Shown here: positions 19,081 through 33,781 of the stretch, in pieces
How positions within the stretch are numbered: the first letter of the stretch is position 1
How the letters are laid out: every line of letters starts with the position of its first letter
NCBI GenBank assembly: GCA_963842085.1
Contig: CAWJET010000001.1
Location: forward strand, 2,811,103-2,875,102
DNA length: 64,000 bases
Direction: 5' to 3'
DNA from: an uncultured delta proteobacterium
GTDB taxonomy: Bacteria; Desulfobacterota; Binatia; Binatales; Binataceae
Notes under the pieces: generated by a model
What the model saw: only the letters and a program-made list of their open reading frames with translations
Databases searched by the model: none
Told to the model about the DNA's origin: nothing
Program-made: the position numbers and the translations under genes

Positions 19081-19599
19081 ATGAACCGGATATTGCTTGT
19101 ACTTGCCCTGTCGACGGTCCTTTTTGGCGGGGCCGTGATCGCGCTGTCGGAGCGGCCATGGGCGCCGCGCGCTGACGTAGTCCAGCCGATCCCGTTCAGC
19201 CATCGGATACACGCCGGGGAGAACAAGATTCCCTGTCAGTACTGTCATGCCGACGCCAGCCGCTCGTCCGAACCGGGGATTCCGGCGGTTAGAAGGTGCG
19301 TGGGATGCCATGGCGACCGCCTTGTGGGCGGCGGCGGAATCGAGCCGGTGACGCGGCCGTGGACGGACGACACGCCGGCGGCGTTCGAGATTCAGTGGAA
19401 TCGCGTTTACACACTGCCCGATTTCGTGCGGTTTACCCATCGGCCGCATATTCACGCCAAGGTGCAATGCCAGACTTGTCACGGCCCGGTGCAAACGATG
19501 GATCGGGTGGTGCCGGCGTTTGAAATCAACATGGGCTTCTGCGTGGACTGTCACACGAAAAAGAAAGCGACGCTCGACTGTGTGGACTGTCATCACTGA
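19081..19599 (+). CDS. actA: Alternative complex III subunit ActA (pentaheme cytochrome c)
   Basis: A signal/anchor helix and five CxxCH motifs (CQYCH, CVGCH, CQTCH, CVDCH, CVDCHH). Confidence 0.8.
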   Translation: MNRILLVLALSTVLFGGAVIALSERPWAPRADVVQPIPFSHRIHAGENKIPCQYCHADASRSSEPGIPAVRRCVGCHGDRLVGGGGIEPVTRPWTDDTPAAFEIQWNRVYTLPDFVRFTHRPHIHAKVQCQTCHGPVQTMDRVVPAFEINMGFCVDCHTKKKATLDCVDCHH

Positions 19600-22551
19600 G
19601 TGAGGAATCAGATGCGCGAGGGACCGTCGATTTCCAGGCGATCATTCATCAAGCTGGCCGCAACTGCGGGCGCGGCGGCGGCGATCCCTGGCTGCGAGCC
19701 GGCCGCGCGCAAGCTGATCCCATACGTGGTGCCCGATGAGAACGTAGTCCCCGGGGTCCCGAGTTTTTTTGCGACGACGTGTGCGGAGTGCCCGGCGGGA
19801 TGCGGCGTGGTGGCGCGAATCCGGGAAGGGCGGGTCGTCAAACTCGAGGGAAACCCCGCCGATCCGATCGGCCAAGGCACGTTGTGCGCGCGGGGGCAGG
19901 CGGCGCTGCAAGGCTTGTACAATCCGGACCGCCTGGCGCATCCGCAAATTCGCGGCGACAACGGCGCGCTGCGGACCGTGTCGTGGGACGAAGCGGAGAA
20001 AATGCTTGGTGACCGGCTGGCGGCGGCGTCGAAGGCGGGCAAGGATCGCGTCGCCTTCTTCGGTTCGCCGCATGGCCCGACTTTCAGGAAGATCGCACTT
20101 GCGGTGGTGGGCGCTTACGGTTCATCGCGCGCGATATTTTACGAGGCGGTCAATAATGAACCGGCGCGGGTCGCGGCGAAGACCCTCTTTGGCCGGCGCG
20201 ATCTGCCGGCCTATCGAATCGATCAGGCCGAAGTGCTGATTTCGTTCGGTGCGGATTTCCTCGAGACCTGGCAATCGCCGGTGGAACTGGCGCGCCAGTA
20301 CGCGCTGTTCCGCGCGCCGCAGAAGCGGCGCGGCACGCTGACTATCGGCCGCGCGACCTACGTTGGCCCGCGGCTCAGCATGACGGCGTCCAAGTGCGAC
20401 GACTGGATCGCGACGGCTCCGGGGGTGCAGGCCGACGTTGCGTGGAGTGTGCTCAACGTCCTGGTCAAGCAGCGTTGGATTTCGCAGAACTCGGGCTTCG
20501 ATCTCGACGCGCTGACCAGGGCGGTCGCGAATTTCGATCCGGCCGCCACCAGCACACGAACCGGCGTGCCGGTCGAGACTATTACCCGGCTGGGCGAGAT
20601 GTTCGGCAAGGCGGACGGCGCATTGGCGATTGCGGGCACCGACGATTCGTCGGCTCATCTGGCGGCGATGATCCTCAATGCGGTCACCGGCAACTTTGGC
20701 AGGACCGTAATGTTTTTCGAAGGCTCGCCGGCCGAAGAGACCAGCACGCCGGACGACGTGGACGCGGTGGTTGACGCGATGCGCGACGGCAATATCGATG
20801 TGGCATTGGTCGCGGGCGGGAATCCGGTCTTCACGATGCCGCCGTCGGCGCGAATGGCCGAAGCGCTACAGAAAGTTCCATTCGTCGTGTGGGCGGGAGG
20901 CGTGCCGGACGAGACTGCGGCGATGGCGAATCTCATTTTGCCGGCGCATCATCCGCTCGAATCATGGCGCGACACTGCGCCGCGCGCGGGAATCCGGGGG
21001 CTGGGTCAGCCGGTGATGCAGCCGGTGTTCGAGAGCAAGGCGGTCGGCGACATCCTGCTGGCGGCGGCGGCGAAATCGTTGAGCGCGAAGCTTCCGTGGG
21101 CGACTACGGCGGAAGCGGTCAAAGCTGAGTGGCTCGCGTTGGCTCCCAAAGCGGACAAGGCGGATCCCGAAGATTTCTGGGTGAAGGTGCGGCGCGAAGG
21201 CGGCCTGTTCGAGGAACAGCATCTTTCGGCGCTCAGCCTCGACACGTCTGCGTTCAAGGCGCCGGTGCCGACGGCGGCCCAGTCCGAACTTTCCGTTTAC
21301 GCCTACCCGCACATCTTCCTTTACGACGGGCGCGGCGCGGACAAGCCGTGGCTGCAGGAATTGCCCGAGCCGGTCACCCAGATCGTGTGGGACAGCTGGG
21401 CCGAGATCCATCCGGAGACCGCGCGCCAGCTCGGCGTCGCCAAGGACGACATTATCGAGATCAAAACGGAGCACGGCGCGATCGAGGCGCCGGTGCTGGT
21501 CGAGAGCACGGTGCGTCCCGGCGTGATCGCGGTTCCGCTCGGGCAGGGGCATCGCGCGTACGGCCGCTATGCAAAAGACGTCGGCGCAAATGCGTGGGCG
21601 ATAATGGCGGAGGGTGCGACCTATGCCGCCGCGACCGCGCGCGCGACCGGCAAGACGCGCACGCTCGTTTCGCCGCTCGGCAAGAGCGAGATGATGGGCC
21701 GTTCGATCATCGAGGCGATGAGTATCGAGCAGTTGGCGAACGGGGTGGTTCCCAAGAGCGAGGCGCAAGAGGTTACCGGGCCGTTCGAAATGTACCCGCG
21801 GTGGAAATATCCCACGCACAAGTGGGGCATGACCATCGACGTCAATGCGTGCACCGGTTGCAGCGCGTGCGTGACCGCGTGCTACGCGGAGAACAATGTT
21901 CCGTTTGTGGGCAAGCAAGGGGTTGATAACGGCCGAATCATGTCGTGGATCCGCATCGAGCGTTATTTCCCGGACGAAAAGGGCGCGGCGGAAGCGCCGC
22001 AACTCTACCTAGCGCCGATGCTGTGCCAGCAGTGCAATCACGCGCCGTGCGAGCCGGTCTGCCCGGTGTTCGCGTCGTATCACACCCGGGAAGGCCTCAA
22101 TGGCCAGATTTACAATCGATGCGTCGGTACGCGCTATTGCGAAAACAACTGTCCGTACAAGGTGCGCCGATTCAACTGGTTCGTGCCGGAGTGGCCCGCG
22201 CCGCTCAACCTGCAACTCAATCCCGACGTGACGGTGCGCGGCGCCGGGGTGATGGAGAAATGCACGTTCTGCATCCAGCGCATTCAGTTCGGCGAGCTCA
22301 ACGCGAAGACCGAGGATCGCCAGTTGCGCGACGGCGAGATCCTGACCGCGTGCCAGCAGACCTGCCCGACACGGGCAATCACGTTCGGCGACAGCGACGA
22401 TCCCGGCAGCGCAATGATGCGCCGGCGCGACGACAACAAGCTGCGCACCTATCGCGCGCTGGAAGAACTCAACACGCAACCGGCGATCACGTATCTGCGC
22501 TCTCTATCGCGAGAAAGGAAAGGCCTGAAGTGGCGGCGGCGCCGAAGGTAA
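19600..22551 (+). CDS. actB: Alternative complex III subunit ActB (molybdopterin-oxidoreductase-like domain fused to 4Fe-4S ferredoxin domain)
   Basis: A Tat signal (SRRSFIKLAATAGAAAA) and a molybdopterin-fold N-domain are followed by C-terminal poly-Cys ferredoxin motifs (CTGCSACVTAC, CQQCNHAPCEPVCP, CENNCPYK, CTFC). Confidence 0.85.
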   Translation: MRNQMREGPSISRRSFIKLAATAGAAAAIPGCEPAARKLIPYVVPDENVVPGVPSFFATTCAECPAGCGVVARIREGRVVKLEGNPADPIGQGTLCARGQAALQGLYNPDRLAHPQIRGDNGALRTVSWDEAEKMLGDRLAAASKAGKDRVAFFGSPHGPTFRKIALAVVGAYGSSRAIFYEAVNNEPARVAAKTLFGRRDLPAYRIDQAEVLISFGADFLETWQSPVELARQYALFRAPQKRRGTLTIGRATYVGPRLSMTASKCDDWIATAPGVQADVAWSVLNVLVKQRWISQNSGFDLDALTRAVANFDPAATSTRTGVPVETITRLGEMFGKADGALAIAGTDDSSAHLAAMILNAVTGNFGRTVMFFEGSPAEETSTPDDVDAVVDAMRDGNIDVALVAGGNPVFTMPPSARMAEALQKVPFVVWAGGVPDETAAMANLILPAHHPLESWRDTAPRAGIRGLGQPVMQPVFESKAVGDILLAAAAKSLSAKLPWATTAEAVKAEWLALAPKADKADPEDFWVKVRREGGLFEEQHLSALSLDTSAFKAPVPTAAQSELSVYAYPHIFLYDGRGADKPWLQELPEPVTQIVWDSWAEIHPETARQLGVAKDDIIEIKTEHGAIEAPVLVESTVRPGVIAVPLGQGHRAYGRYAKDVGANAWAIMAEGATYAAATARATGKTRTLVSPLGKSEMMGRSIIEAMSIEQLANGVVPKSEAQEVTGPFEMYPRWKYPTHKWGMTIDVNACTGCSACVTACYAENNVPFVGKQGVDNGRIMSWIRIERYFPDEKGAAEAPQLYLAPMLCQQCNHAPCEPVCPVFASYHTREGLNGQIYNRCVGTRYCENNCPYKVRRFNWFVPEWPAPLNLQLNPDVTVRGAGVMEKCTFCIQRIQFGELNAKTEDRQLRDGEILTACQQTCPTRAITFGDSDDPGSAMMRRRDDNKLRTYRALEELNTQPAITYLRSLSRERKGLKWRRRRR

Positions 22552-23888
22552 TCGCAGAGCCGACGTTCCGCGACATCGACCGCAGCGTGCGGCGAGTGAT
22601 GGAACCGGCGGGCCTCGCGTACTGGGCGTGGATCGGCTTCTGCTTCACGCTGGTGGCGATCGCGGCGGCTTTGTGGTTGCGGCAGATCTATACCGGGCTG
22701 GGCGTGACGGGTCTTCGCCAGCCGGTGATGTGGGCGATCTACATTACCAACTTCGTTTTCTGGGTCGGGATCGCGCATTCGGGAACGTTGATCTCCGCGA
22801 TTTTGTTCCTGTTCCGCACCAAGTGGCGCACCGCGGTTTATCGCGCCGCGGAGACGATGACGATATTCGCGGTCGCGACGGCGGGACTGTTCCCATTAGT
22901 CCATCTTGGCCGCGTGTGGTTTTTCTACTGGTTATTGCCATACCCCAATGAGCGATCGCTGCAACCCGATTTCCGCTCGCCATTGGTATGGGACGCTTTC
23001 GCAGTTAGTACCTATCTGACTATCAGCGCGCTGTTCTGGACGATGGGACTGATTCCCGACATCGCCAACGCGCGCGAGGCCGCGACCGGATGGCGCAAGA
23101 AGTTCTACACGGTGCTGGCGATGGGCTGGCAGGGAACCGACCGGCAGTGGCGGCATTACTCGATGGCGTACCTGCTGATGGCGGGCCTGGCGACTCCGCT
23201 GGTGATCTCGGTTCACTCGGTGGTGTCGTGGGACTTCGCGATGGCGCAACTGCCGGGCTGGCACAGCACGATCTTCGCGCCATACTTTGTCGCCGGCGCG
23301 ATCTTTTCCGGCGTCGCGATGGTTATCACGCTGCTGGTCCCGATGCGCAAGCTGCTGGGCATCGAGGACCTGCTGACCGAGTGGCATTTCGACAATCTGG
23401 CGAAGGTCATCCTGCTGACCTCGCTGATCGTTTCGTACTCGTACATTACTGAAACGTTCATGGCCTGGTACTCGGGCGACAAGATCGAGCAGATGACGTT
23501 TCACATGCGCTACTTCGGGCCGTGGGGTCCGCTGTTCTGGGTAATGGTTTTGTGCAACTGCCTGATACCACTGTTGCTATTTTCACCGCGCATCCGGGTT
23601 AACCTGACGGCGCTCTGGATAATCTCAATTTTCGTGAACATCGGGATGTGGCTCGAGCGCTTCGTGATCATCGCGGGCTCGCTCCGGGTGAACTTCGAGC
23701 CTTCGCAGTGGGGCCCCTACCATCCGTCGATCACTGAAATCATGATCACGGTCGGCAGCTTCGCGTGGTTCGTGGGGCTGTTCTCTCTGTTCTCCAGGTT
23801 CCTGCCGATCTTCTCGATGACGGAACTCAAGGAAGGAATCGTCTGGCTGCGGAAGGCGCTGAAGATGGATCGGGTCAAAGCCGCATGA
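22529..23888 (+). CDS. actC: Alternative complex III subunit ActC (NrfD/PsrC-like quinol-interacting membrane subunit)
   Basis: A polytopic NrfD-like membrane protein. A GTG start at 22529 is preceded by a GAAAGGAAAGG ribosome-binding site, overlaps the actB end, and lies in the same frame as the tracked ORF. Confidence 0.75.
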
Positions 23889-24397
23889 GCACGGTTGCGA
23901 TCATAAGTTCGTTCGCGGATGACGCTCAATGCGCGCAAGCGATCGAGGAGCTGCGCGCGGCGCAGGTTGGCGACTTCAATACCTTCTCGCCGATACCGAG
24001 CCATCGGATCGAGCATGCAATCGGCCGGAAAAAGAGCCCGGTGCGGTGGCTGGTGCTGGCGGGTGGAATTTCAGGCGTTCTGACCGGGCTCGCGATCACG
24101 ATTGGAACGACTTACGAGTGGCGCCTCAATGCGGGCGGCAAGCCGCTGCTGTCGTGGCCGCCGTTCATCGTGATCTGCTTCGAATTGATGGTCCTGCTGG
24201 GCGGAATCTTCGGCTTCTTCGGAGTGCTGGGGCTTGCGGGTGTGCCCACGACCGAGTCGGCGCCAGGCTACGAGGGGCGCTTCGGCGAGGATCGATTCGG
24301 GATCGTGGTTCGATGCGACGAGGCGGAAGCGGAGCGCGTCGAGTCGATGCTGAAGGAATCGGGTGCGGAAGAGGTCATGCGTGAAGGTGTCCGGTAA
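23885..24397 (+). CDS. actD: Alternative complex III subunit ActD (small two-TM membrane protein)
   Basis: The ATG overlaps the actC stop (ATGA). Two predicted TM helices, consistent with ActD size and position. Confidence 0.6.
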   Translation: MSTVAIISSFADDAQCAQAIEELRAAQVGDFNTFSPIPSHRIEHAIGRKKSPVRWLVLAGGISGVLTGLAITIGTTYEWRLNAGGKPLLSWPPFIVICFELMVLLGGIFGFFGVLGLAGVPTTESAPGYEGRFGEDRFGIVVRCDEAEAERVESMLKESGAEEVMREGVR

Positions 24398-24403
24398 ACC
24401 GCG

Positions 24404-25624
24404 ATGAGCACTAATCTTCAACCGGCGCATCGCGAGCGCGCAGAGACGAAGCCGCGGCCGGTGGAGTCGGTGGCCGGCGCGACAATGCAGACAGTCGCGG
24501 CCGCGATGATCGCGCTGGGTGCGATCGCGTTTGCGTTGGCGCTGACGCGGGGCGGCGCCGCTGTCGCATGGGAAGCCTATCTCGTCAACTTGCTGTTCTT
24601 CCTCGGCGTCGCGCAGGGTGCGCTGGTCGCATCCGCGGCGTTCTACCTGACGCAGGCGAAGTGGGGCGGTTCGACGCCGTATCGGCTCGGCGAGGCGTTC
24701 GCGCCATTTCTGTGGGTCGGATTTTTTCTGTTTTTTGGATTGTACTTCGGCCGCAGCCTGATTTTTCCGTGGGTGACGCATCCGATTCCGCAGAAGGCCG
24801 CGTGGCTGAACACTCCGTTTCTCTTCGCGCGCGATGGAATCGGGCTCGGCGCCATGGCTGCGGCGAGCTTCGCGTTTGTCCGCGTCTCGCGTGGCGATGA
24901 CGCACGGGCGTGGACGACTGCGACCGCCGACATCGAGTTGCCGCCGCATTCGATACGGGTGCTCGCTCCGCTGGTCGCGGTCCTGTTCGCGGTGGTCTAC
25001 TCGCTGATCGCATTCGATCTGGTCATGTCGCTCGCGCCGGTGTGGCGCAGCACACTTTTCGGCTGGTACTTTTTCGCCGGCGCATTCTGGAGCGGATTGA
25101 CCGCGATGGCTCTCACAGCGGTCGTGTTGCGCGGCCGCCTGGGCGAGAACAACCTGTTCACCAATCCCGTCGTCATGCACGACTTCGGCAAGATGGTCTT
25201 CGCGTTCTCCGTGTTCTGGATATACCTGATGTTCGCGCAGTACATCGTGATCTGGTACGGCGACATCCCGGTCGAAACTTTCTTCATCGTTCAGCGGGTA
25301 CATCATATGCCGTGGTCGCCGCTATCGGTGGCGTGCCTGGTGCTGATCTGGCTGATTCCGTTTACCGTGCTGATGAGCGTGCGGGCCAAGAAGGCGCCGG
25401 CGATTCTCGGCACAGTGGCCGGGCTGGGGCTGGTCGGGATGTGGCTCGAGCGTTACGTGCTGGTGGTGCCGTCGCTGTCGCTCGACGCGATCCCGTTTGG
25501 GCCGACGCAATTTCTGATCACGCTTGGTTTTTTGGGCGCATTTCTCATTTCGGCAGTGCCGGGACTGAACCGCGTCGCGCAGGCCGCGACCTCGGGCGAA
25601 CCCGTCGGAGATGATCCGGAATGA
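24404..25624 (+). CDS. actF: Alternative complex III subunit ActF (second NrfD-like membrane subunit)
   Basis: A 406-aa polytopic protein paralogous in architecture to ActC. No monoheme ActE gene lies between actD and actF. Confidence 0.7.
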   Translation: MSTNLQPAHRERAETKPRPVESVAGATMQTVAAAMIALGAIAFALALTRGGAAVAWEAYLVNLLFFLGVAQGALVASAAFYLTQAKWGGSTPYRLGEAFAPFLWVGFFLFFGLYFGRSLIFPWVTHPIPQKAAWLNTPFLFARDGIGLGAMAAASFAFVRVSRGDDARAWTTATADIELPPHSIRVLAPLVAVLFAVVYSLIAFDLVMSLAPVWRSTLFGWYFFAGAFWSGLTAMALTAVVLRGRLGENNLFTNPVVMHDFGKMVFAFSVFWIYLMFAQYIVIWYGDIPVETFFIVQRVHHMPWSPLSVACLVLIWLIPFTVLMSVRAKKAPAILGTVAGLGLVGMWLERYVLVVPSLSLDAIPFGPTQFLITLGFLGAFLISAVPGLNRVAQAATSGEPVGDDPE

Positions 25625-26649
25625 TCCGGCGCGGTTCAAACAAGTATTCGATCGCCTCAGTAGCTATGCGAGTGGCTATTGCACTGACTATTGCGGGATG
25701 CTCGGCGACGGACCGTCCGATGACAACGCTGGCGCCGAAATCGGACCTGGCGCAGTGGATTCACAGTCTCTTCATAGATGTGACGATCTGGGACGGGATC
25801 ATCCTGGCGATCGTGGTCGCCGCATTCATCCTCGCGGTGTTCGTCTTTTCTTCTCGCGTAGGCGAAGCGGCGCCACCCTCGACCGCGTCGTCCGACCTCG
25901 GCCTGGAAATAGCGTGGACGGTGGGCCCCGCGCTGGTGTTGTTGATGATCTCGGTGCCGACGATACGGACGATCTTTCGCTCGCAGCCGGCGGTTGCGCC
26001 TGCTGGAGCGCTGGAGATCAAAGTAGTCGCGCATCAATGGTGGTGGGAGTTCGACTATCCGGACGGCGTGAAGACCGGTAACGAACTGCATATCGCCGTC
26101 AACCGGCCGATTCGCCTGTCACTGGAATCGGCCGACATCATCCACAGCTTCTGGGTGCCGCAACTGGGCGGCAAACGCGACGTGGTGCCGGGCCAAATCA
26201 ATGAGCTGACATTCGTCGCGACGGTAACCGGAATGTATCCGGGGCAATGTGCCGAGTTTTGCGGCCTGTCGCATGCGAACATGCGCTTTCGAGTGTTCGT
26301 CGATTCGCCGGAAGGGTTCGCGATGTGGGACAAGGCGCAACTTGCCGGCCCGGTCGCGCCACCGGCGAGCGATCAGTTGGCGTCGGACGGCGCGAAGATT
26401 TTCGCCGACAGTCCGTGCACGACCTGCCACATGATCAAGGGCGTCTCGAAGGGATATATCGGCCCTGACCTGACGCATTTCGGCAGCCGCACAACGCTGG
26501 CCGCCGGAGTGCTGAAGAACACGCCCGAGAACGTCGCCCAGTGGATCCAGGATCCGCAGGAAATCAAGCCGGGCGCGAATATGCCGGCGCTGCTGTTGCC
26601 AGGGCCAAAGATGAACGCCCTGGTCGCGTATCTCGAGAGTCTCAAATAG
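25621..26649 (+). CDS. coxB: Cytochrome c oxidase subunit II fused to a C-terminal cytochrome c domain (caa3-type)
   Basis: A CuA site (HSFWVPQLGGKRD, CAEFCGLSHANM) and a C-terminal CTTCH heme c motif are present. The ATG overlaps the actF stop. Confidence 0.9.
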   Translation: MIRRGSNKYSIASVAMRVAIALTIAGCSATDRPMTTLAPKSDLAQWIHSLFIDVTIWDGIILAIVVAAFILAVFVFSSRVGEAAPPSTASSDLGLEIAWTVGPALVLLMISVPTIRTIFRSQPAVAPAGALEIKVVAHQWWWEFDYPDGVKTGNELHIAVNRPIRLSLESADIIHSFWVPQLGGKRDVVPGQINELTFVATVTGMYPGQCAEFCGLSHANMRFRVFVDSPEGFAMWDKAQLAGPVAPPASDQLASDGAKIFADSPCTTCHMIKGVSKGYIGPDLTHFGSRTTLAAGVLKNTPENVAQWIQDPQEIKPGANMPALLLPGPKMNALVAYLESLK

Positions 26650-26659
26650 GGAGCGTCCA

Positions 26660-29134
26660 ATGGCCGCCCAGCCGAAACCATTGCCAGTGCGTCAGCCGAG
26701 CTACCTCGAAGGTGGCGGAATACTCGGATGGCTGACGACGATCGATCACAAGCGCGTCGCGGTCATGTACCTCGCCAGCGCGCTGTTCTTCATGGCGTTC
26801 GGCGGACTCGAAGCGATGGCGATTCGCGTACAGTTGTGGCGTCCCGACAATCACGCGCTGTCGGCGGCGACCTACAACGCATTTTTCACGATGCACGGGA
26901 CGACGATGGTCTTCCTGGTCGTCATGCCGCTGCTGCTCGGCTTCATGGGCAACTTCCTGATCCCGCTGCAGATCGGCGCGCGCGACGTGGCGTTTCCGCG
27001 GCTCAACGCGCTGAGCTTCTGGCTCGCCCTGAGCGGAGGCATACTGCTCCATCTCGGCTGGATTCGCGGCGGACTTCCCGATGCGGGATGGTTCGGTTAT
27101 GCGAACCTGACCGAACGGTACTTCACGCCGGGCCTGGCGATCGACTGGTGGGTGATCGGGCTGCTGGTGTTAGGCACTTCGACCGTCCTTACGGGCCTGA
27201 ACTTCCTGACGACGATCATTGCGATGCGCGCGCCGGGCATGACGTACATGCGGATGCCGATGTTCATCTGGGCGCAATTGGTGACGTCGATCCTGATCTT
27301 GATCGCGTTTCCCCCGCTCACGATCGGGCTGATCTTTCTGCTCTTCGATCGCTTCTTCGGCACGCATTTCTACATCGCGACGGCGGGCGCCACGCCCATC
27401 CTGTGGCAGCATCTGTTCTGGCTGTTCGGTCATCCCGAAGTGTACATCATGGCGCTGCCGGCCTTTGGAGTCATCTCGGAAGTCATTCCGGCGTTTTCGC
27501 GCAAGCCGCTGTTCGGCTATCCGATGATGGCCTATTCGATTTGCCTGATCGCATTTCTGTCGTACGGCGTGTGGGGCCATCACATGTTCGCGACCGGGAT
27601 GGGCCCGGTTGCGGACTCGGCATTCGCGATCACCTCGATGCTCATCGCGATCCCGACCGGGGTGAAAATTTTCAGCTGGATCGCGACGGTCTGGGGCGGC
27701 TCGCTGCGCATGACGACCGCATTCTATTTCGCGCTTGGGATGATCCTCGAGTTCACGATCGGCGGACTCAGCGGAATCATGCACGCGTCGGCGCCGATCG
27801 ATCTTCAGCAGACGGACTCGTACTTTGTCGTCGCGCACTTTCACTACGTGCTGTTCGGCGGGGTGATGTTCGCGATCCTGGCGGGGTTCTATTACTGGTG
27901 GCCGAAGATAACCGGCCGCATGCTCGGCGAGCGGCTTGGCAAGTGGCAGTTCTGGGTAACGGTAGTCGGATTCAACCTTACGTTTTTCCCGATGCATTTT
28001 CTCGGGATGTGGGGGATGCCGCGGCGCACCTACACCTACGGCGCCGACCTGGGCTGGACGCAGCTCAACCAGCTCGAGACGATCGGCGCGTTCATTCTCG
28101 GCATCGCGTTCCTGCTTTTCTACTTCAATATTTTCAGGAGTCTCGCCAGTGGAGAGCAGGCGCCCGCGGATCCATGGGACGGACGCAGCCTCGAATGGTC
28201 CACGCCGTCGCCGCCGCCGGCGTACAACTTCGCGACCCTTCCGCAAATCCGCGGCCGCGACGCGTGGTGGGTTCTCAAGTACGGGCGCGCCGGCTCGCGC
28301 GGCGTTGCCGCCTACATGTCGGGGCAGGCGCCGTCGCAACCGCGGTCGGGCGAGCCGCCCTCCGTCGAGCACATCCACATGCCGGCGCCTTCGATCTTCC
28401 CGCTGGTACTGAGTCTTGGCGTCGGGATGATGGGCCTTGGTCTCATCATCGACTGGTACCGCATCGTGCTCATCGGCGCGGCGGACGTGGTCCTGTCGAT
28501 TATCGGGATGGGATTCGAGTACGCGAACTTCGGCGAAGAATCGCACGACCCCGAGCACGCGCCCTCGTCTGGTGGAATCGACGTGCGCAAGATCGGCATC
28601 TGGTCGTTCATCGGCTCGGAGTGCGTGTTCTTCGCCAGCCTGATCTCGACCTTCATCGTTTACAAATCGCGCAGCGTTACCGGGCCGGGGCCGGAAATCC
28701 TCAACATCCCGCTGACTTCGTTCAGCACCTTCATCCTGCTGATGAGTTCACTGCTGATGGTGCTGGCGCTGGCGGCCACCCAGCGCGGCGACAAGCTATG
28801 GACGCGAATCTGGCTCGGCGGCACGGTCACGTTCGGGCTGATTTTTCTTTGCGGGCAGGTTTACGAGTTCACCAGCTTCTACCGCGAAGGCATGGGACTG
28901 ACGACCAACCTGTTCTCGCAGTCGTTCTTCGTCCTGGTCGGATTTCACGGTGCGCACGTTGCGATCGGAGTGATGTGGCTGTCGGTCCTGTTGATCGCGG
29001 CGATGACGGGCAAGCTCGGCAAGTCGCGCGCGCTGTCGGTCGAGCTCGCGGGACTTTACTGGCATTTCGTCGACGTCGTGTGGATCATCATATTTACTCT
29101 CGTCTATCTGATGCAGGCGGTGCCCGGAGCATGA
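26660..29134 (+). CDS. coxA: Cytochrome c oxidase subunit I fused to subunit III (caa3-type CoxA/CoxC fusion)
   Basis: At 824 aa it carries COX1 motifs (WFFGHPEVY region, HHMF) followed by a COX3-like seven-TM C-terminal domain. Confidence 0.9.
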   Translation: MAAQPKPLPVRQPSYLEGGGILGWLTTIDHKRVAVMYLASALFFMAFGGLEAMAIRVQLWRPDNHALSAATYNAFFTMHGTTMVFLVVMPLLLGFMGNFLIPLQIGARDVAFPRLNALSFWLALSGGILLHLGWIRGGLPDAGWFGYANLTERYFTPGLAIDWWVIGLLVLGTSTVLTGLNFLTTIIAMRAPGMTYMRMPMFIWAQLVTSILILIAFPPLTIGLIFLLFDRFFGTHFYIATAGATPILWQHLFWLFGHPEVYIMALPAFGVISEVIPAFSRKPLFGYPMMAYSICLIAFLSYGVWGHHMFATGMGPVADSAFAITSMLIAIPTGVKIFSWIATVWGGSLRMTTAFYFALGMILEFTIGGLSGIMHASAPIDLQQTDSYFVVAHFHYVLFGGVMFAILAGFYYWWPKITGRMLGERLGKWQFWVTVVGFNLTFFPMHFLGMWGMPRRTYTYGADLGWTQLNQLETIGAFILGIAFLLFYFNIFRSLASGEQAPADPWDGRSLEWSTPSPPPAYNFATLPQIRGRDAWWVLKYGRAGSRGVAAYMSGQAPSQPRSGEPPSVEHIHMPAPSIFPLVLSLGVGMMGLGLIIDWYRIVLIGAADVVLSIIGMGFEYANFGEESHDPEHAPSSGGIDVRKIGIWSFIGSECVFFASLISTFIVYKSRSVTGPGPEILNIPLTSFSTFILLMSSLLMVLALAATQRGDKLWTRIWLGGTVTFGLIFLCGQVYEFTSFYREGMGLTTNLFSQSFFVLVGFHGAHVAIGVMWLSVLLIAAMTGKLGKSRALSVELAGLYWHFVDVVWIIIFTLVYLMQAVPGA

Positions 29135-29460
29135 GCGAGATTGCAGATACCCACGGCGGGCAGGTTCATCATCCCGGCGCGGCGACGTATCTGATCATCG
29201 CCGCGTTCCTGGTGGTGTTGACGGCGATGGAGGTCACCGTGTTCTACCTGCACGCACTGCGTCCCGTGCTGGTGCCGGTATTGATCGTTCTGGCCGCGGC
29301 CAAGTTCGCATTGGTCGCGATGTTCTATATGCACTTGAAGTACGACGGATGGCTGCTGACGGGCGTGTTCATCTTCCCGCTGATGATGGCGACGCTCCTG
29401 CTGATCTCGCTGATCCTGCTCTTCGCGTATTTGTTGCATCACATGGCGCCGATCGGATAG
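29131..29460 (+). CDS. coxD: Cytochrome c oxidase subunit IV (prokaryotic small subunit)
   Basis: A 109-aa three-TM protein. The ATG overlaps the coxA stop (ATGA). It is hidden in the ORF track inside a 910-aa wrong-frame ORF. Confidence 0.65.
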   Translation: MSEIADTHGGQVHHPGAATYLIIAAFLVVLTAMEVTVFYLHALRPVLVPVLIVLAAAKFALVAMFYMHLKYDGWLLTGVFIFPLMMATLLLISLILLFAYLLHHMAPIG

Positions 29461-29467
29461 GGCAGTT

Positions 29468-30280
29468 TTGGCGATGGACATTCTGGGAGAACATCCGAGC
29501 ATACCGATAGGCGTCGCGTTTCTGATCGCGATTTACCTCGGCGCGTGCCGCGCGGCCGGCCGCAGACCGACGCGGCGTCAGGCGATGTGGTTCGCGTTGG
29601 CGATGGGCGCGATTCTATTCACGCACACTGAGCTCGACGAACTCGCGGACGCGCGAATCTTTTCGATGCACATGCTGCAGCATCTGATGCAGACCCTTGT
29701 GATTCCGCCGCTGCTGCTGATGGGTACGCCGGGCTGGATGCTGAGGCCCTGGCTCCTCAGCCGGCCGCTCAAGCCGATCGCGCGCCTGCTCACGCAACCG
29801 GTGGTGGCGTTCCTGATTTTTTCGGCGGTGTTCGTCAGCGCGCACTTTCCGCCGATCTTCGATCGGATGTGCCGCGACGAGGACTTTCACATTTTCCTGC
29901 ACCTGCTGTTCATGGCCTCCGGCGTGCTGCTATGGTTCCCGATACTGAGTCCGCTGCCCGAGCTGCCGCGGCTCTCGTACCCGGCGCAAATCCTTTACCT
30001 GTTCCTGCTGATGATCCCGATGACTGCGGTGGCCGCGCCGATCACGCTCGCGACCCGCGTGATTTATCCATGGTATACCGAGGGCGCGCACGGATGGGGC
30101 CTCAAGCCGATCGACGACCAGGTGCTGGGCGGGCTGATCATGTGGATCGGGCAGGGCACGTATCTGATGTTCATTTTCACATTCATCTTCTACAAGTGGC
30201 AGCAGCGCGAAGACCGCGACATCCCGGTTCTGCCCGCATCGACGACGCCGGAGCTGCGCGTGCTGCGAGCCCGCTCGTGA
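29468..30280 (+). CDS. ctaG: caa3-type cytochrome oxidase assembly factor CtaG-like membrane protein
   Basis: A 270-aa polytopic protein immediately after coxD. The size, position and conserved His-containing loops are consistent with Caa3_CtaG. Confidence 0.6.
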   Translation: MAMDILGEHPSIPIGVAFLIAIYLGACRAAGRRPTRRQAMWFALAMGAILFTHTELDELADARIFSMHMLQHLMQTLVIPPLLLMGTPGWMLRPWLLSRPLKPIARLLTQPVVAFLIFSAVFVSAHFPPIFDRMCRDEDFHIFLHLLFMASGVLLWFPILSPLPELPRLSYPAQILYLFLLMIPMTAVAAPITLATRVIYPWYTEGAHGWGLKPIDDQVLGGLIMWIGQGTYLMFIFTFIFYKWQQREDRDIPVLPASTTPELRVLRARS

Positions 30281-30357
30281 CGCTTGCCGGGTCCGGATCT
30301 TCTGGGCTACTAGTTGCGTAGTCGCGCGCCTGATTTTGGCCCGCCGGGGCCGGCTGC

Positions 30358-31410
30358 GTGACGAGGAAGATGCAGCATTCGAGGGCGCGGATCATCATCG
30401 ATGGAGCGGTTGCCGGGATCATCGGCGCCCTGGTTGTCGCCCTCTGGTTTCTGATCTTCGACGTAATTCGCGGTCACGCGCTTGAGACGCCGGCCCTGCT
30501 GGCGGCCACGATTCTGCACGGCTCGCACAATTACGAAGTCCTTCACGGGCTGAAGCTGCTGGCGCTGGAATACTCGCTGCTCCACTTCGCCGCCTTCATC
30601 GCGTTCGGCATCGCCGGAGGATTGCTGCTCGAAGCGTGCGAGAGCGAGTCGTCGCTGCTCTTTTCGCTGGCGATCTTTTTCGTCGCCTTCGAAGTTTTCT
30701 TTATCGCGGTCGTGCTGTTCCTGGGGCCGAACGTGATGGCGGAGCTGACCTGGTGGGGTATCATCGTCGGCAACCTGCTCGCCACGGCCGCGATGCTGTC
30801 GTATTTCTTCTGGCGGCATCCTGCCCTCGCGTTCAATCTGCTGGGCGGCTGGATTACGGTCGCGCGCGAAGGCGTGACCGCCGGACTGGTGGGCGGCGTC
30901 GTCGTCGCCATCTGGTTCATGTGCTACGACTTCGCCGCGGGCAATTCGTTTCACACGCCGGCGATTCTTGGTGCGATGGTCTTTGGCAGCGCGAGCGTAA
31001 CCAGTGGCATCCACGCGACGCTGCCGCTGGTGCTCGGCTACTCGATCCTGCATTTCTTTGCGTTCGTCGTGTTCGGGCTGGCGCTGGCGGTTTTGCTTGC
31101 TGCATCGGAATGGGAACCGTTCATGCTCCTCGGCGCGCTGCTGCTGCTTGCAGTGTTCGAGGTATTCTTTGTCGGATTCGTTTCGCTGATCGATGCGTCA
31201 GCGCTCGAAGCCCTGGGATGGTGGAAAATCGTAGCGGGAAACATCCTGGCGCTGATCGCGATGGCGACGTACTTCATCCGCGGCCATCACGGACTCGGTA
31301 TCAAACTGGTTGAGCGATGGGCGATGCTCGACCACGAGGGCGCCGAGATGGGCGATCTGCCGCCCGCGCCGTCCAACCACGAGCCCGACAATCATCCATC
31401 GCATCTTTGA
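30358..31410 (+). CDS. Polytopic membrane protein of unknown function with internal tandem duplication
   Basis: Residues ~15-170 and ~175-330 are clear paralogous repeats (…LHGS/…TSGIHATLPLVLGYSILHFFAFVVFG versus …LHFAAFIAFGIAG…). Each ends with FEVFF(I/V) and a WWGII/WWKIV helix, and there is a His-rich C-terminal tail. Confidence 0.55.
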   Translation: MTRKMQHSRARIIIDGAVAGIIGALVVALWFLIFDVIRGHALETPALLAATILHGSHNYEVLHGLKLLALEYSLLHFAAFIAFGIAGGLLLEACESESSLLFSLAIFFVAFEVFFIAVVLFLGPNVMAELTWWGIIVGNLLATAAMLSYFFWRHPALAFNLLGGWITVAREGVTAGLVGGVVVAIWFMCYDFAAGNSFHTPAILGAMVFGSASVTSGIHATLPLVLGYSILHFFAFVVFGLALAVLLAASEWEPFMLLGALLLLAVFEVFFVGFVSLIDASALEALGWWKIVAGNILALIAMATYFIRGHHGLGIKLVERWAMLDHEGAEMGDLPPAPSNHEPDNHPSHL

Positions 31411-31417
31411 GAGCCGG

Positions 31418-32215
31418 TTAAATTCCAAGCACGTCGCGCATCGTGTAGAGCCCCGGCTTGCGGCTTACCAGCCAGCCTGCCGCACGCAGCGCGCCGCGTG
31501 CGAGCGAGTCGCGGCTCTGCGCGCGATGAATCAGCTCGAGGCGCTCGCCCTGACCGCCGAAAATCACGGTGTGATCGCCGACCGCGTCGCCCGCGCGCAT
31601 CGCGAGCACCGCAATCTTGCCGTCGGGCCTGATGCCCGTGATTCCTTCGCGGCCGTAGACCGCGTTGGAGGCGAACTCCACGCCGCGTGCCGACGCGATC
31701 GCCTTGCCGAGCGACAGCGCGGTGCCGCTGGGCGCGTCGATCTTGGTGCGATGATGAATCTCGAGGACTTCGGCGTCGAAGTCGGGAAGGATCGCGGCGA
31801 CTTCGGCGACGATCTTGGCAAGCACGTTGACTCCGATGCTCATGTTGGGCGCGATCACGGTGCGCGTCTTCTGCGCCAGTTCGCGCGCGCGGGTTTCCAT
31901 CGCGGGTGTAAAGCCGGTCGAGCCGATCACGATCGCGGCTCCGGCTTTCGACGCAATTTCGAGATGCTCCAACGAGGCGGCGGCGTTCGTGAAGTCCAGC
32001 GTGACAGTGTCGGGCTTTGCGAGCGACGCGTAGTCGTCGGTGATTTTCACACCGAGCGTGCCCACGCCGGCGAGCTCGCCGGCGTCGGCTCCGATCGCGC
32101 CGATGCCGTGCGCTTCGAGCGCGCCGACTATTTTATGCGCCGGCTCGCGCGACGCGAGCGCGACCAGCAGCCGGCCCATCCGGCCCGCTGCTCCAGCCAC
32201 GATTAGATTAGCCAT
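31418..32215 (-). CDS. dapB: 4-hydroxy-tetrahydrodipicolinate reductase
   Basis: An N-terminal Rossmann motif VAGAAGRMG and the DapB core (EVLEIHHRTKIDAPSGTAL). Confidence 0.9.
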   Translation of the reverse strand: MANLIVAGAAGRMGRLLVALASREPAHKIVGALEAHGIGAIGADAGELAGVGTLGVKITDDYASLAKPDTVTLDFTNAAASLEHLEIASKAGAAIVIGSTGFTPAMETRARELAQKTRTVIAPNMSIGVNVLAKIVAEVAAILPDFDAEVLEIHHRTKIDAPSGTALSLGKAIASARGVEFASNAVYGREGITGIRPDGKIAVLAMRAGDAVGDHTVIFGGQGERLELIHRAQSRDSLARGALRAAGWLVSRKPGLYTMRDVLGI

Positions 32216-32268: not shown

Positions 32269-32535
32269 TCAGGAAGCCGGAGCCTCGGCCGCCGCCGCTT
32301 CAGCCGCGGGCGCTGCCGCCGCTTCTGCCGCCTTGCCGTGCTTGGCCTTGAAGTGTTCGTCGCACAGGCTCGAGGTGCCGTGGCGATGCTTGCGGCATTT
32401 CTCGAAGGTGCACGTTTTGTAGCGCGCCTTGGGCATCTCGCCGGCTTTCCAAAGCCGAAAATGCTGTCGGCAGTAACCCTTGCCGACCGCCTCGCGCGCG
32501 CAATCTTTCGCTTTGCAGTTTCCCTTGTTCGCCAT
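32269..32535 (-). CDS. Small Cys/His-rich protein with duplicated C-x4-C-x9-C-x2-H-F zinc-ribbon-like motif and Ala-rich tail
   Basis: Two tandem units (NCKAKDCAREAVGKGYCRQHF and TCTFEKCRKHRHGTSSLCDEHF) are followed by AAEAAAAPAAEAAAAEAPAS. The start was trimmed to MANKGN. Confidence 0.45.
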   Translation of the reverse strand: MANKGNCKAKDCAREAVGKGYCRQHFRLWKAGEMPKARYKTCTFEKCRKHRHGTSSLCDEHFKAKHGKAAEAAAAPAAEAAAAEAPAS

Positions 32536-32623
32536 GAATCCCTTCTTGGAAGCCGCTTCCCGACGCAAGCGCCGAAAATCGCGGCCGAGCAATTCATCTA
32601 CAATAGTGTGTGCCGCCGGTGCT

Positions 32624-33781
32624 TCATAGAGGGTGGGAATCAATCATTCGCAGTGAAAGTGCCAACGCTGCCATTGCGAGCGTGGCTGTCAGCGCGACCT
32701 CCATGCTTGCGCGCGGGCTTACGTCGGCGATCGCATGGCCCATTATCCAGGGCGCGACGATCCCGCCGAGCGCGCCGCCCGCCACTACGATCGCAGTCAT
32801 CCTGCCGACCTCGGCCGGGAAGCTGGCGGCGCCAATCGCGATCATGTTGGGGAAGACGGGGCCGTAGCCGAAGCCGATCAGAAACACAGCCGATGCCGCA
32901 AGGCCGCCGGCCGTGGGCGCCGCGATCAACATCACCAGCGCAGCGGAAGATAGCATAGAAGCCAGCATCGTGAATTGCGGCAATGCGATGCGATGCCCCA
33001 ATCGTCCGCCAAACGCCCGCCCGCACACCAATCCCAGCCAATAGAGCGAGACGCCCGACGACGCGAGCATCGGGCCGAGCGCGCCCGCCGTGCGCAAGTA
33101 GAGAAAGAGCCACGCGCCAATCCCGATTTCGGCGCCGACGTACAGGAACATCACTGCGCTGATCGCCCAAATCAGCGGTCGCGATAGCATCTTCAGAAAT
33201 CCGTGGCCGATGACCGGCGCCGTTCGGACTTCGATTGCTGCGCTAAGGCCTAAGCGAAACGCGATTGCGGCACACATGATCGCGCCGCCGCCGAACACCC
33301 ACCAGTACGGCACCCGGGCTGCGAAGGCGGCGCTGACCATCAGCGGCCCGAGCAGCGCGCCGACGCCGAACAGCACGTGCAGGTAGTTGAGCGCGGAGGC
33401 GAGCCGCTCGCGATTCAGCTCTACGATGAGCGCATTGGCGCCGATGTCGATGCCGCCATTGGCGACGCCGATCACAAATCCGGCCGATAGCAGTCCAGTA
33501 AGGCCACGAGCCACTGCGAGCCTCGTCAGCCCGGCCGTGAACAGCGCCATCGCACCGACGAGGATCTTCTGCGCGCTCATTTGTTGATTGATCTCGCCGG
33601 CGATCAGCACCGATATGAAATAACCGGCCGACGCGGCGCTGACGATCAATCCGGCGCGCTCGATCGGCAGATGCGTGGTACGAGAAATCTGGGGGATAAA
33701 GGGGCCGAGCCAGCCACTATTGATGCCCACCATCAGCAGGCACGAATACGCCAGCCGGGTGATCGTTCGCTCGCGGCTCAT
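32624..33781 (-). CDS. MFS transporter
   Basis: Twelve predicted TM helices with MFS-like loop motifs. The Arg-rich 150-aa N-terminal extension in the ORF track was removed. Confidence 0.8.
   Translation of the reverse strand: MSRERTITRLAYSCLLMVGINSGWLGPFIPQISRTTHLPIERAGLIVSAASAGYFISVLIAGEINQQMSAQKILVGAMALFTAGLTRLAVARGLTGLLSAGFVIGVANGGIDIGANALIVELNRERLASALNYLHVLFGVGALLGPLMVSAAFAARVPYWWVFGGGAIMCAAIAFRLGLSAAIEVRTAPVIGHGFLKMLSRPLIWAISAVMFLYVGAEIGIGAWLFLYLRTAGALGPMLASSGVSLYWLGLVCGRAFGGRLGHRIALPQFTMLASMLSSAALVMLIAAPTAGGLAASAVFLIGFGYGPVFPNMIAIGAASFPAEVGRMTAIVVAGGALGGIVAPWIMGHAIADVSPRASMEVALTATLAMAALALSLRMIDSHPL

Follow-up and report, generated by a model that had tools for sequence, protein, structure and literature searches.

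A four-helix membrane module, duplicated in a protein encoded after the caa3 oxidase genes of a Binataceae bacterium, defines a large family that is a candidate for an oxidase assembly factor

The ORF that follows ctaG in a caa3 oxidase gene cluster of an uncultured Binataceae bacterium encodes a fused dimer of a four-transmembrane-helix module, and this module defines a large uncharacterised family. The gene lies in a stretch of 64,000 nucleotides, which was analysed as a whole and is referred to here as the window. Judged from sequence comparisons and gene neighbourhoods, the family appears to be a promising candidate for an oxidase assembly factor that has so far escaped description. We consider the chances about even that the paralogue of the window, built from such four-helix modules, acts as an oxidase biogenesis factor at the stage of cofactor insertion.

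The features of the window that matter for this proposal are given below, with coordinates as positions in the window.

19081..25624, forward strand: alternative complex III genes (ActA-like cytochrome c7, ActB, ActC/NrfD, ActD and ActF-like), assigned by Pfam matches, except that ActF was assigned by position and synteny alone, without a Pfam match
25621..29460, forward strand: caa3 oxidase structural genes, whole block
25621-26649, forward strand: CoxII with a cytochrome c domain (Pfam COX2 plus Cytochrom_C)
26660-29134, forward strand: CoxI-CoxIII fusion of 824 aa (Pfam COX1 plus COX3)
29134-29460, forward strand: CoxIV (Pfam COX4_pro)
29468..30280, forward strand: CtaG of the Caa3 type (PF09678, E 6.3e-53), an oxidase assembly factor encoded next to the ORF on its upstream side
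30281..30357, forward strand: 77-bp spacer between ctaG and the ORF, with only a weak terminator-like hairpin at 30315-30328
30358..31410, forward strand: ORF that encodes the family protein (350 aa when read from GTG 30358; stop codon 31408-31410)
30388..30837, forward strand: repeat 1 (residues 11-160), delimited by self-alignment, AlphaFold helices and family-wide conservation
30856..31305, forward strand: repeat 2 (residues 167-316), delimited by self-alignment, each residue lying 156 positions after its counterpart in repeat 1
31306..31407, forward strand: C-terminal soluble tail including the His-rich end; variable, pLDDT 54-64, conservation ending at about residue 330
31418..32215, reverse strand: dapB (Pfam DapB_N/DapB_C), convergent with the ORF and forming the downstream boundary of the cluster

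The alternative complex III genes lie directly 5' of the oxidase genes, and ctaG closes the cluster ahead of the ORF. When the 77-bp spacer was scanned for promoters and terminators, no promoter-like site was found in it. The first-pass annotation of this DNA had placed the gene 77 bp after ctaG on the same strand, which was confirmed; the distance becomes 89 bp when it is counted from the ATG at 30370. This ATG (residue 5; 346 aa) is the probable true start, because P0001, a database copy of 346 aa that is 100% identical to the window protein, begins there, as do 12 of 16 aligned orthologues, which start at a Met aligned with residue 5. The remaining four begin more upstream.

Several further observations concern the immediate surroundings of the gene. 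The CoxI-CoxIII fusion of the window recurs in L001 and L129. On the downstream side, dapB was present in 11 of 128 loci and adjoins the family gene in nine Binatia-type ones (L013, L015, L050, L064, L071, L073, L085, L093 and L124); it is a conserved Binatia neighbour of the family gene. A Cys/His-rich ORF of 124 aa (CKAKDC...CRQHF...CTFEKCRKHRH...CDEHF; window positions 32272-32643, reverse strand) has no Pfam match and may encode a small zinc-binding protein; its relatives (cluster c15) adjoin dapB in the Binatia-type loci L064, L071 and L093. Insertions are concentrated where ctaG meets the family gene: in Binataceae relatives this hot spot holds a Y1 transposase plus DUF202 (L001, 8699-9716) or one or two other ORFs (L015, 3443-5630; L064, 4206-5223). 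The Binataceae family gene probably has its own promoter.

The protein had been described from its sequence as consisting of two paralogous halves with the same order of elements, and both points were borne out. In an ungapped local self-alignment, the halves matched at an offset of 156 residues with a score of 289, compared with 39 +/- 7 (maximum 75) in 300 shuffles. Alignment of half against half with hhalign, using profiles from 17 orthologues, gave a probability of 99.9%, an E-value of 2.7e-34 and 37% identity over 150 ungapped columns, in which residues 11-160 pair with residues 167-316. The G-x3-G first helix, the His-containing loop, LHFAAF/LHFFAF, FEVFF and WWGIIVGNLLA/WWKIVAGNILA were all found in this order in the two halves. 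The His-rich tail noted in the same description is present in the window sequence and lacks family-wide conservation: it differs even between Binatia orthologues of 66-88% identity, and it is absent in the Gemmatimonadota and Methylomirabilota members checked, which end soon after the last helix. Because the tail varies among orthologues, the idea that it has a function was dropped.

An AlphaFold model based on 36 sequences (pLDDT 83, pTM 0.71) gave each half a long TM1, a short helix, TM2, TM3, a second short helix and TM4. In repeat 1, TM1 carries G16/G20/G23 and is followed by the invariant Asp35 and then by the short helix with Thr44-Pro45; Tyr72 and His76 lie in TM2, Glu112 in TM3, and Trp132-Trp133, Asn139, Met146 and His154 in TM4. 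The equivalents in repeat 2 are Asp191, Thr200-Pro201, Tyr228, His232, Glu268, Trp288-Trp289, Asn295, Met302 and His310.

The statement that no described family has this repeat holds, since profile and fold searches were negative at every level. Neither Pfam-A (at E<=1) nor NCBIfam contained a match for the window protein; the same two collections provided no family for ten diverse members (Pfam at E<=1), and no weak Pfam match recurred among 38 members at E<=10. Two family profiles retrieved nothing meaningful from the PDB sequences. Foldseek found no significant fold match in the PDB (best E 0.65, TM below 0.25), and no oxidase or complex III chain was among the matches listed. Comparisons by hhalign were likewise negative for the family profile against CtaG, CoxIV, heme O synthase and DUF420, and against three uncharacterised families encoded by neighbouring genes. 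Placement in a known transporter family had been named in advance as evidence against an accessory role; no significant profile or fold match to transporter families (MFS, MATE, ABC-2, RND and others) was obtained. A published description of the family was not found in an incomplete collection of full-text literature.

The closest homologues (66-100% identity) all come from Candidatus Binatus or Binataceae and are labelled hypothetical. A profile search of 1.84 billion cluster representatives (clustered at 50% identity) yielded 1344 clusters at E<=1e-3 and 589 at E<=1e-10, so that the family comprises at least 1344 clusters. Its carriers are chiefly Gemmatimonadota, Binatia and Methylomirabilota. 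When copy number was determined in the best 150 of the 1344 clusters, 96 had one copy of the module, 27 two, two three and one four. One-copy proteins have about 165-180 aa, and the unit about 150 residues. Since most family clusters have one copy, the module can be regarded as a stand-alone unit and the window protein as a fused pair. The duplication described in the first-pass annotation therefore stands, with the qualification that the basic entity is the four-helix module of about 150 aa, which also occurs in one, three or four copies, and not the two-repeat protein. Single-module genes also occur in tandem (L088, L076 and L105), and several genomes have more than one paralogue (for example, L034 and L126; L018 and L091). 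Repeats 1 and 2 share 47% identity in Methylomirabilota, 33% in Binatia and 29% in Gemmatimonadota, and this difference between phyla suggests, without proof, that the modules were fused more than once.

Two fusions with other domains were seen in P0247 and P0170, one joining DoxX_2 and the other a Cys4 zinc-ribbon-like N-terminus to one module. Wherever a cluster is named, the name is hypothetical protein, except for the DoxX-fusion cluster, which is called 'putative oxidoreductase'.

Conservation was evaluated in 145 module sequences, with the residue numbering of the window protein.

Conserved in 99-100%: Gly16, Gly20, Asp35, Pro45, Leu48, His76, Phe80 and Gly84 (Asp35 and His76 in 100%)
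Conserved in 90-98%: Gly23, Ala28, Trp30, Phe31, Thr44, Tyr72 (90%), Asn139 (97%), Ala142 and Met146 (91%)
Conserved in 80%: His154
Conserved in about 77%: Glu112

Each module has on average 4.2 Lys and Arg residues in its two termini and the TM2-TM3 loop combined, vs 1.8 in the other two loops. This bias and the zinc-ribbon fusion support an N-in/C-in topology, and both termini of the module are predicted to be cytoplasmic. Given this topology, Asp35, Thr44-Pro45 and Tyr72 would be at the periplasmic face, His76, Asn139, Glu112 and Met146 would lie one third to one half into the membrane, and His154 would be located at the cytoplasmic membrane end. Residues of the His, Met, Asn, Tyr and Asp type are typical ligands of heme or copper, and the conserved set would suit a ligand site for either cofactor. 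No recognised heme- or copper-binding motif was detected in the family. Residues distinctive of oxidase-linked members were ruled out, as the conserved residues of linked and unlinked members are identical.

To describe the genomic neighbourhoods of the family, one genome per GTDB species was scanned with a degenerate DNA pattern for G..G....A.WF...D........TP..L., which matches both repeats of the window and has 0 matches expected by chance. The scan gave at least 120 loci from distinct GTDB species genomes, and all 120 were confirmed by tblastn; as labelled, they comprise 75 from Gemmatimonadota, 17 from Methylomirabilota/Rokubacteria, 10 from Binatia, 8 from Deltaproteobacteria and a few others. 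Genes in the GC-rich loci were called with a GC3-filtered ORF caller. CoxI, CoxII, CoxIII, CoxIV or CtaG was encoded no more than 3 kb away in 41 of the 120 listed loci, mostly at less than 300 bp, and ctaG was the nearest oxidase gene in 25 of these 41. Of the 26 Gemmatimonadota loci in which 2 kb or more could be seen on each side, 14 were oxidase-linked. Heme O synthase (248-286 bits, against a TIGR01473 cutoff of 210) was present in 11 of the 120 listed loci and HemQ in four.

Taken together, an oxidase or ctaB neighbourhood was found in 50 of the 120 listed loci, and eight further loci show a PBP4/c7 synteny that elsewhere runs on into cox genes. At an adjacency chance of 1%, which is assumed for illustration and not measured, the binomial probability of 50 in 120 would be about 1e-66; the loci are non-independent events, and the synteny within phyla is partly inherited. 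The linkage extends over Gemmatimonadota, Binatia and some Methylomirabilota, in at least six gene arrangements and on both strands. The remaining 70 of the 120 listed loci contain no oxidase or ctaB gene, many of them being visible only as 8-kb blocks. Thus, the co-occurrence with oxidase operons that had been proposed as a check was seen in several orientations, and about half of the family is located elsewhere. The arrangements observed were as follows.

ctaG, then the two-repeat gene, co-directional: Binatia (window, L073, L085 and L111); a co-directional gene after ctaG also in L102
ctaG convergent with a single-repeat gene: Gemmatimonadaceae (L023, L039, L051, L063, L075, L090, L116 and others)
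Family gene between coxIV and ctaG: L028
coxIV, then the family gene directly: L070, L106 and L113
ctaG, then a three-repeat gene: L029 and L091
Family gene upstream of coxII: L123
Family gene after ctaB: L010, L053, L078, L086 and L099
cox2-cox1/3-cox4-ctaG-gene, with an 8-bp overlap: L129, a Pfam-annotated metagenome contig
cox4-ctaB-gene, with a 4-bp overlap: L133, a Pfam-annotated metagenome contig
cox4-DUF420-gene-ctaB, with HemQ convergent and the gene between ctaM and ctaB: L132, a Pfam-annotated metagenome contig
cox4-ctaB::DUF420-orf-gene: L131, a Pfam-annotated metagenome contig

In the five annotated oxidase contigs (L001, L129 and L131-L133), no gene for Surf1, COX15/CtaA, Cox11 or Sco was found within +/-10 kb, and the polytopic ORFs of the 8-kb blocks included no candidate for a canonical ctaA. 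The visible stretch of the cox operons in L131-L133 also contains no ctaG. Away from oxidase genes, the main two-repeat clade of Methylomirabilota follows RNase D near an SDR/ketosynthase (polyketide-like) cluster, the two-repeat member of L130 lies in an unrelated gene context, and other unlinked members adjoin aconitase/PIG-L or ABC transporter genes.

Additional gene associations were noted in the course of this survey. In Gemmatimonadales, L088 (3368-7289) and also L062, L069, L074, L076 and L105 contain two tandem single-module genes with no oxidase genes nearby, in some cases beside genes for aconitase and a GBBH-like_N protein; a gene for a PIG-L deacetylase/NPCBM_assoc protein of 850-1000 aa comes after the tandem pair. 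This arrangement is a second recurrent context of the family; the grouping of the large PIG-L proteins themselves with the family was an artefact of single-linkage clustering. Two small proteins without Pfam or NCBIfam matches recur beside family genes, namely one of about 217 aa, encoded in five loci between the genes for HtrA and the family protein (L023, 3083-3733, and relatives), and a membrane protein of about 105 aa in four loci (L106, 2754-3104, and relatives), the latter twice between two convergent cox clusters. Heme O synthase (UbiA/TIGR01473) with a C-terminal fusion to DUF420 (CtaM) occurs in several Gemmatimonadota (L043, 1-1620; L099, 5126-6730; L131, 8205-9599). In three Gemmatimonadota contigs (L131, 1-4370; L132, 1-5487; L133, 1-5258), a cytochrome bd subunit I-like protein of about 605 aa is encoded directly 5' of cox2-1-3-4, with two to three multiheme cytochromes c (one with EB_dh) and a CarboxypepD_reg protein following the cytochrome bd-like gene; this set could form an unusual electron-input module from quinol to oxidase.

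The neighbourhood recurs in three phyla, on either strand and with several gene orders; this recurrence and the overlaps with ctaG and ctaB point to a functional tie to the biogenesis of A-type oxidases. We propose that each module would present a set of invariant polar residues in the half of the membrane that faces the periplasm: the Asp that ends TM1, the Thr-Pro pair of the short loop helix, the Tyr-x3-His of TM2, in most cases a Glu of TM3, and the Asn-x6-Met of TM4. Modules would act in pairs or larger sets, whether supplied by single genes, tandem genes or fusions of two to four copies. The paralogue of the window, like those of many Gemmatimonadota and some Methylomirabilota, would be dedicated to the A-type (caa3) heme-copper oxidase, where the protein may bind a membrane-embedded cofactor and then hand it on, together with CtaB, CtaM (DUF420) and Caa3_CtaG. 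Farnesylated heme O/A is favoured as this cofactor because of the neighbouring ctaB, ctaM and HemQ genes; copper is the alternative, since ctaG is a frequent neighbour. As unlinked members keep the same invariant residues, the underlying activity may be generic, with only some paralogues dedicated to the oxidase. The most economical picture is that of a generic carrier or channel activity, with one paralogue having been recruited for oxidase work. The accessory-factor idea of the first-pass annotation is thus supported by comparative genomics; the association is not specific to the operon of the window, and a part in metal or heme handling is what we infer. Counting against the proposal are the 70 listed loci without an oxidase or ctaB gene, the unrelated contexts of the main Methylomirabilota clade and of L130, the residues shared by linked and unlinked members, and the negative searches for a cofactor-binding motif or a structural analogue. 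In addition, the gene of Gemmatimonadaceae is convergent with ctaG and is not co-transcribed with it, and in some Binatia genomes the junction between ctaG and the gene is interrupted by a transposase or other genes.

Surf1/Shy1, whose gene lies in cox operons of proteobacteria and actinobacteria, is a chaperone for heme a in which two TM helices flank a large periplasmic domain. The family resembles Surf1 (PF02104) in its operon position after cox and ctaB genes and in its proposed handling of heme between synthesis and subunit I, but it has four TM helices per module with a loop of only about 28 residues and no soluble domain, and it displays neither homology nor a match to this Pfam family. 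Caa3_CtaG (PF09678), a CopD-like putative factor for CuB insertion, is likewise a polytopic membrane protein with a presumed role in metal handling. It is encoded by a separate gene, however, and hhalign against 26 CtaG sequences gave a probability of 0.3%, with no match to the Pfam family. CtaM (DUF420, PF04238) has four to five TM helices and is required for active aa3/caa3 oxidases in Staphylococcus aureus and Bacillus subtilis (PMC9145763). The family shares with it a small polytopic membrane protein of about four helices, conserved His and a gene beside ctaB or at the end of the cox operon; the precise late role in oxidase assembly is unsettled for both (PMC9145763). Unlike CtaM, the family has no Pfam match, and hhalign against two DUF420 sequences gave a probability of 0.3%. 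The two families coexist and do not replace each other, since operons with the present family (L131 and L132) also contain DUF420, either in a gene of its own or fused to CtaB. A neighbourhood of the kind seen for assembly factors, with oxidase and heme A pathway genes in distant lineages, was observed in 50 of the 120 listed loci and is accompanied by the ctaG and ctaB overlaps; further bacterial oxidase assembly factors are expected and still to be identified (PMC9145763). The present proteins can best be placed among the accessory membrane proteins of oxidase operons, a known class in which they form a new and unrelated family.

The main rival to a biogenesis factor is a purely generic role without oxidase function: the proteins would be general small membrane carriers or channels for an ion, a metal or a small lipophilic molecule, and their proximity to oxidase genes would reflect shared aerobic regulation or inherited synteny. 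About half of the loci lie in unrelated contexts (RNase D/SDR, aconitase/PIG-L and ABC transporters), several paralogues occur per genome, and linked and unlinked members have identical invariant residues, all of which would be expected of such a protein. The varying repeat number and the tandem genes recall small oligomeric channels and transporters, and the polar stripe of TM2 and TM4 (Tyr72-His76 ... Glu95; Asn139-Met146-Tyr149-His154) could line a permeation path. Chance or inheritance is nevertheless a poor explanation for linkage to cox and ctaB genes in at least six gene orders and three phyla, with overlaps and a ctaM-gene-ctaB order, and no transporter family or fold was matched; we regard this explanation as rather unlikely. 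That the protein is an additional structural subunit of the caa3 oxidase, or of a supercomplex of alternative complex III and caa3, seems decidedly unlikely. It is small and hydrophobic, as are many supernumerary subunits, its gene is co-directional with and the last of the cox operon in Binatia, L129, L131 and L133, and alternative complex III genes are adjacent in the window. However, the gene follows the assembly genes ctaG, ctaB and ctaM and stands outside the group of structural genes, it is frequently encoded on the opposite strand or transcribed separately, many paralogues are distant from any oxidase, and a range of one to four modules would be unusual for a stoichiometric subunit. These properties disfavour such a subunit, and the profile matched no PDB chain even though the PDB contains structures of oxidases and of alternative complex III.

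The comparison with CtaA/COX15 (PF02628) bears on a third explanation, namely that the protein is a non-canonical heme A synthase, or the obligatory partner of one, converting heme O from the adjacent CtaB to heme A. Like CtaA, the window protein has eight helices in two homologous four-helix halves, an invariant His in both TM2 and TM6, and stand-alone four-helix relatives, a form represented among the synthases by the compact archaeal CtaA (PMC8239418, Table 1). The gene sits beside ctaB, where ctaA commonly is (ctaB-gene, ctaM-gene-ctaB and HemQ-gene-ctaB), and no COX15/CtaA is encoded within +/-10 kb of the ctaB-linked operons. Against this, the family has no Pfam match (the window protein and 10 members at E<=1; 38 members at E<=10), and neither its sequence nor its fold is similar to that of CtaA, including the solved structure. 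In a test for the two His residues of the CtaA type, His76/His232 were invariant in TM2/TM6, but the second pair, His154/His310 (80%), was at the predicted cytoplasmic end of TM4/TM8, which would leave a single invariant intramembrane His per module. In addition, many members are far from any heme gene, and canonical CtaA has been reported elsewhere in genomes of Gemmatimonadetes (types 2.0 and 1.1) and Rokubacteria (type 1.5) (PMC8239418, Table 1; bioRxiv 10.1101/2020.03.01.968255). A synthase is therefore very improbable. A broader version, which we consider unlikely, is that Gemmatimonadota, Binatia and Methylomirabilota depend on the family for the handling of heme a, in which it would act as a membrane carrier of heme O/A with CtaB and CtaM in a Surf1-like role or, in some lineages, as a non-canonical heme A synthase.

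The delivery of heme a and CuB to subunit I in bacteria is still unsettled, and the helpers Surf1, Cox11, Caa3_CtaG and CtaM are patchily distributed. As a biogenesis factor at the cofactor-insertion stage, the family described here would be a concrete and widespread candidate for this step, with many members in Gemmatimonadota, Binatia and Methylomirabilota, which are soil phyla. Experimental handles are provided by five to six invariant intramembrane residues, natural forms with one to four modules, and operons in which the gene is translationally coupled to ctaG or ctaB. There is no Pfam or NCBIfam model at present, and a family model would improve the annotation of respiratory gene clusters in many metagenome-assembled genomes. 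If the proteins do carry heme O/A, the architecture of one to four modules would represent a new heme-binding membrane fold.
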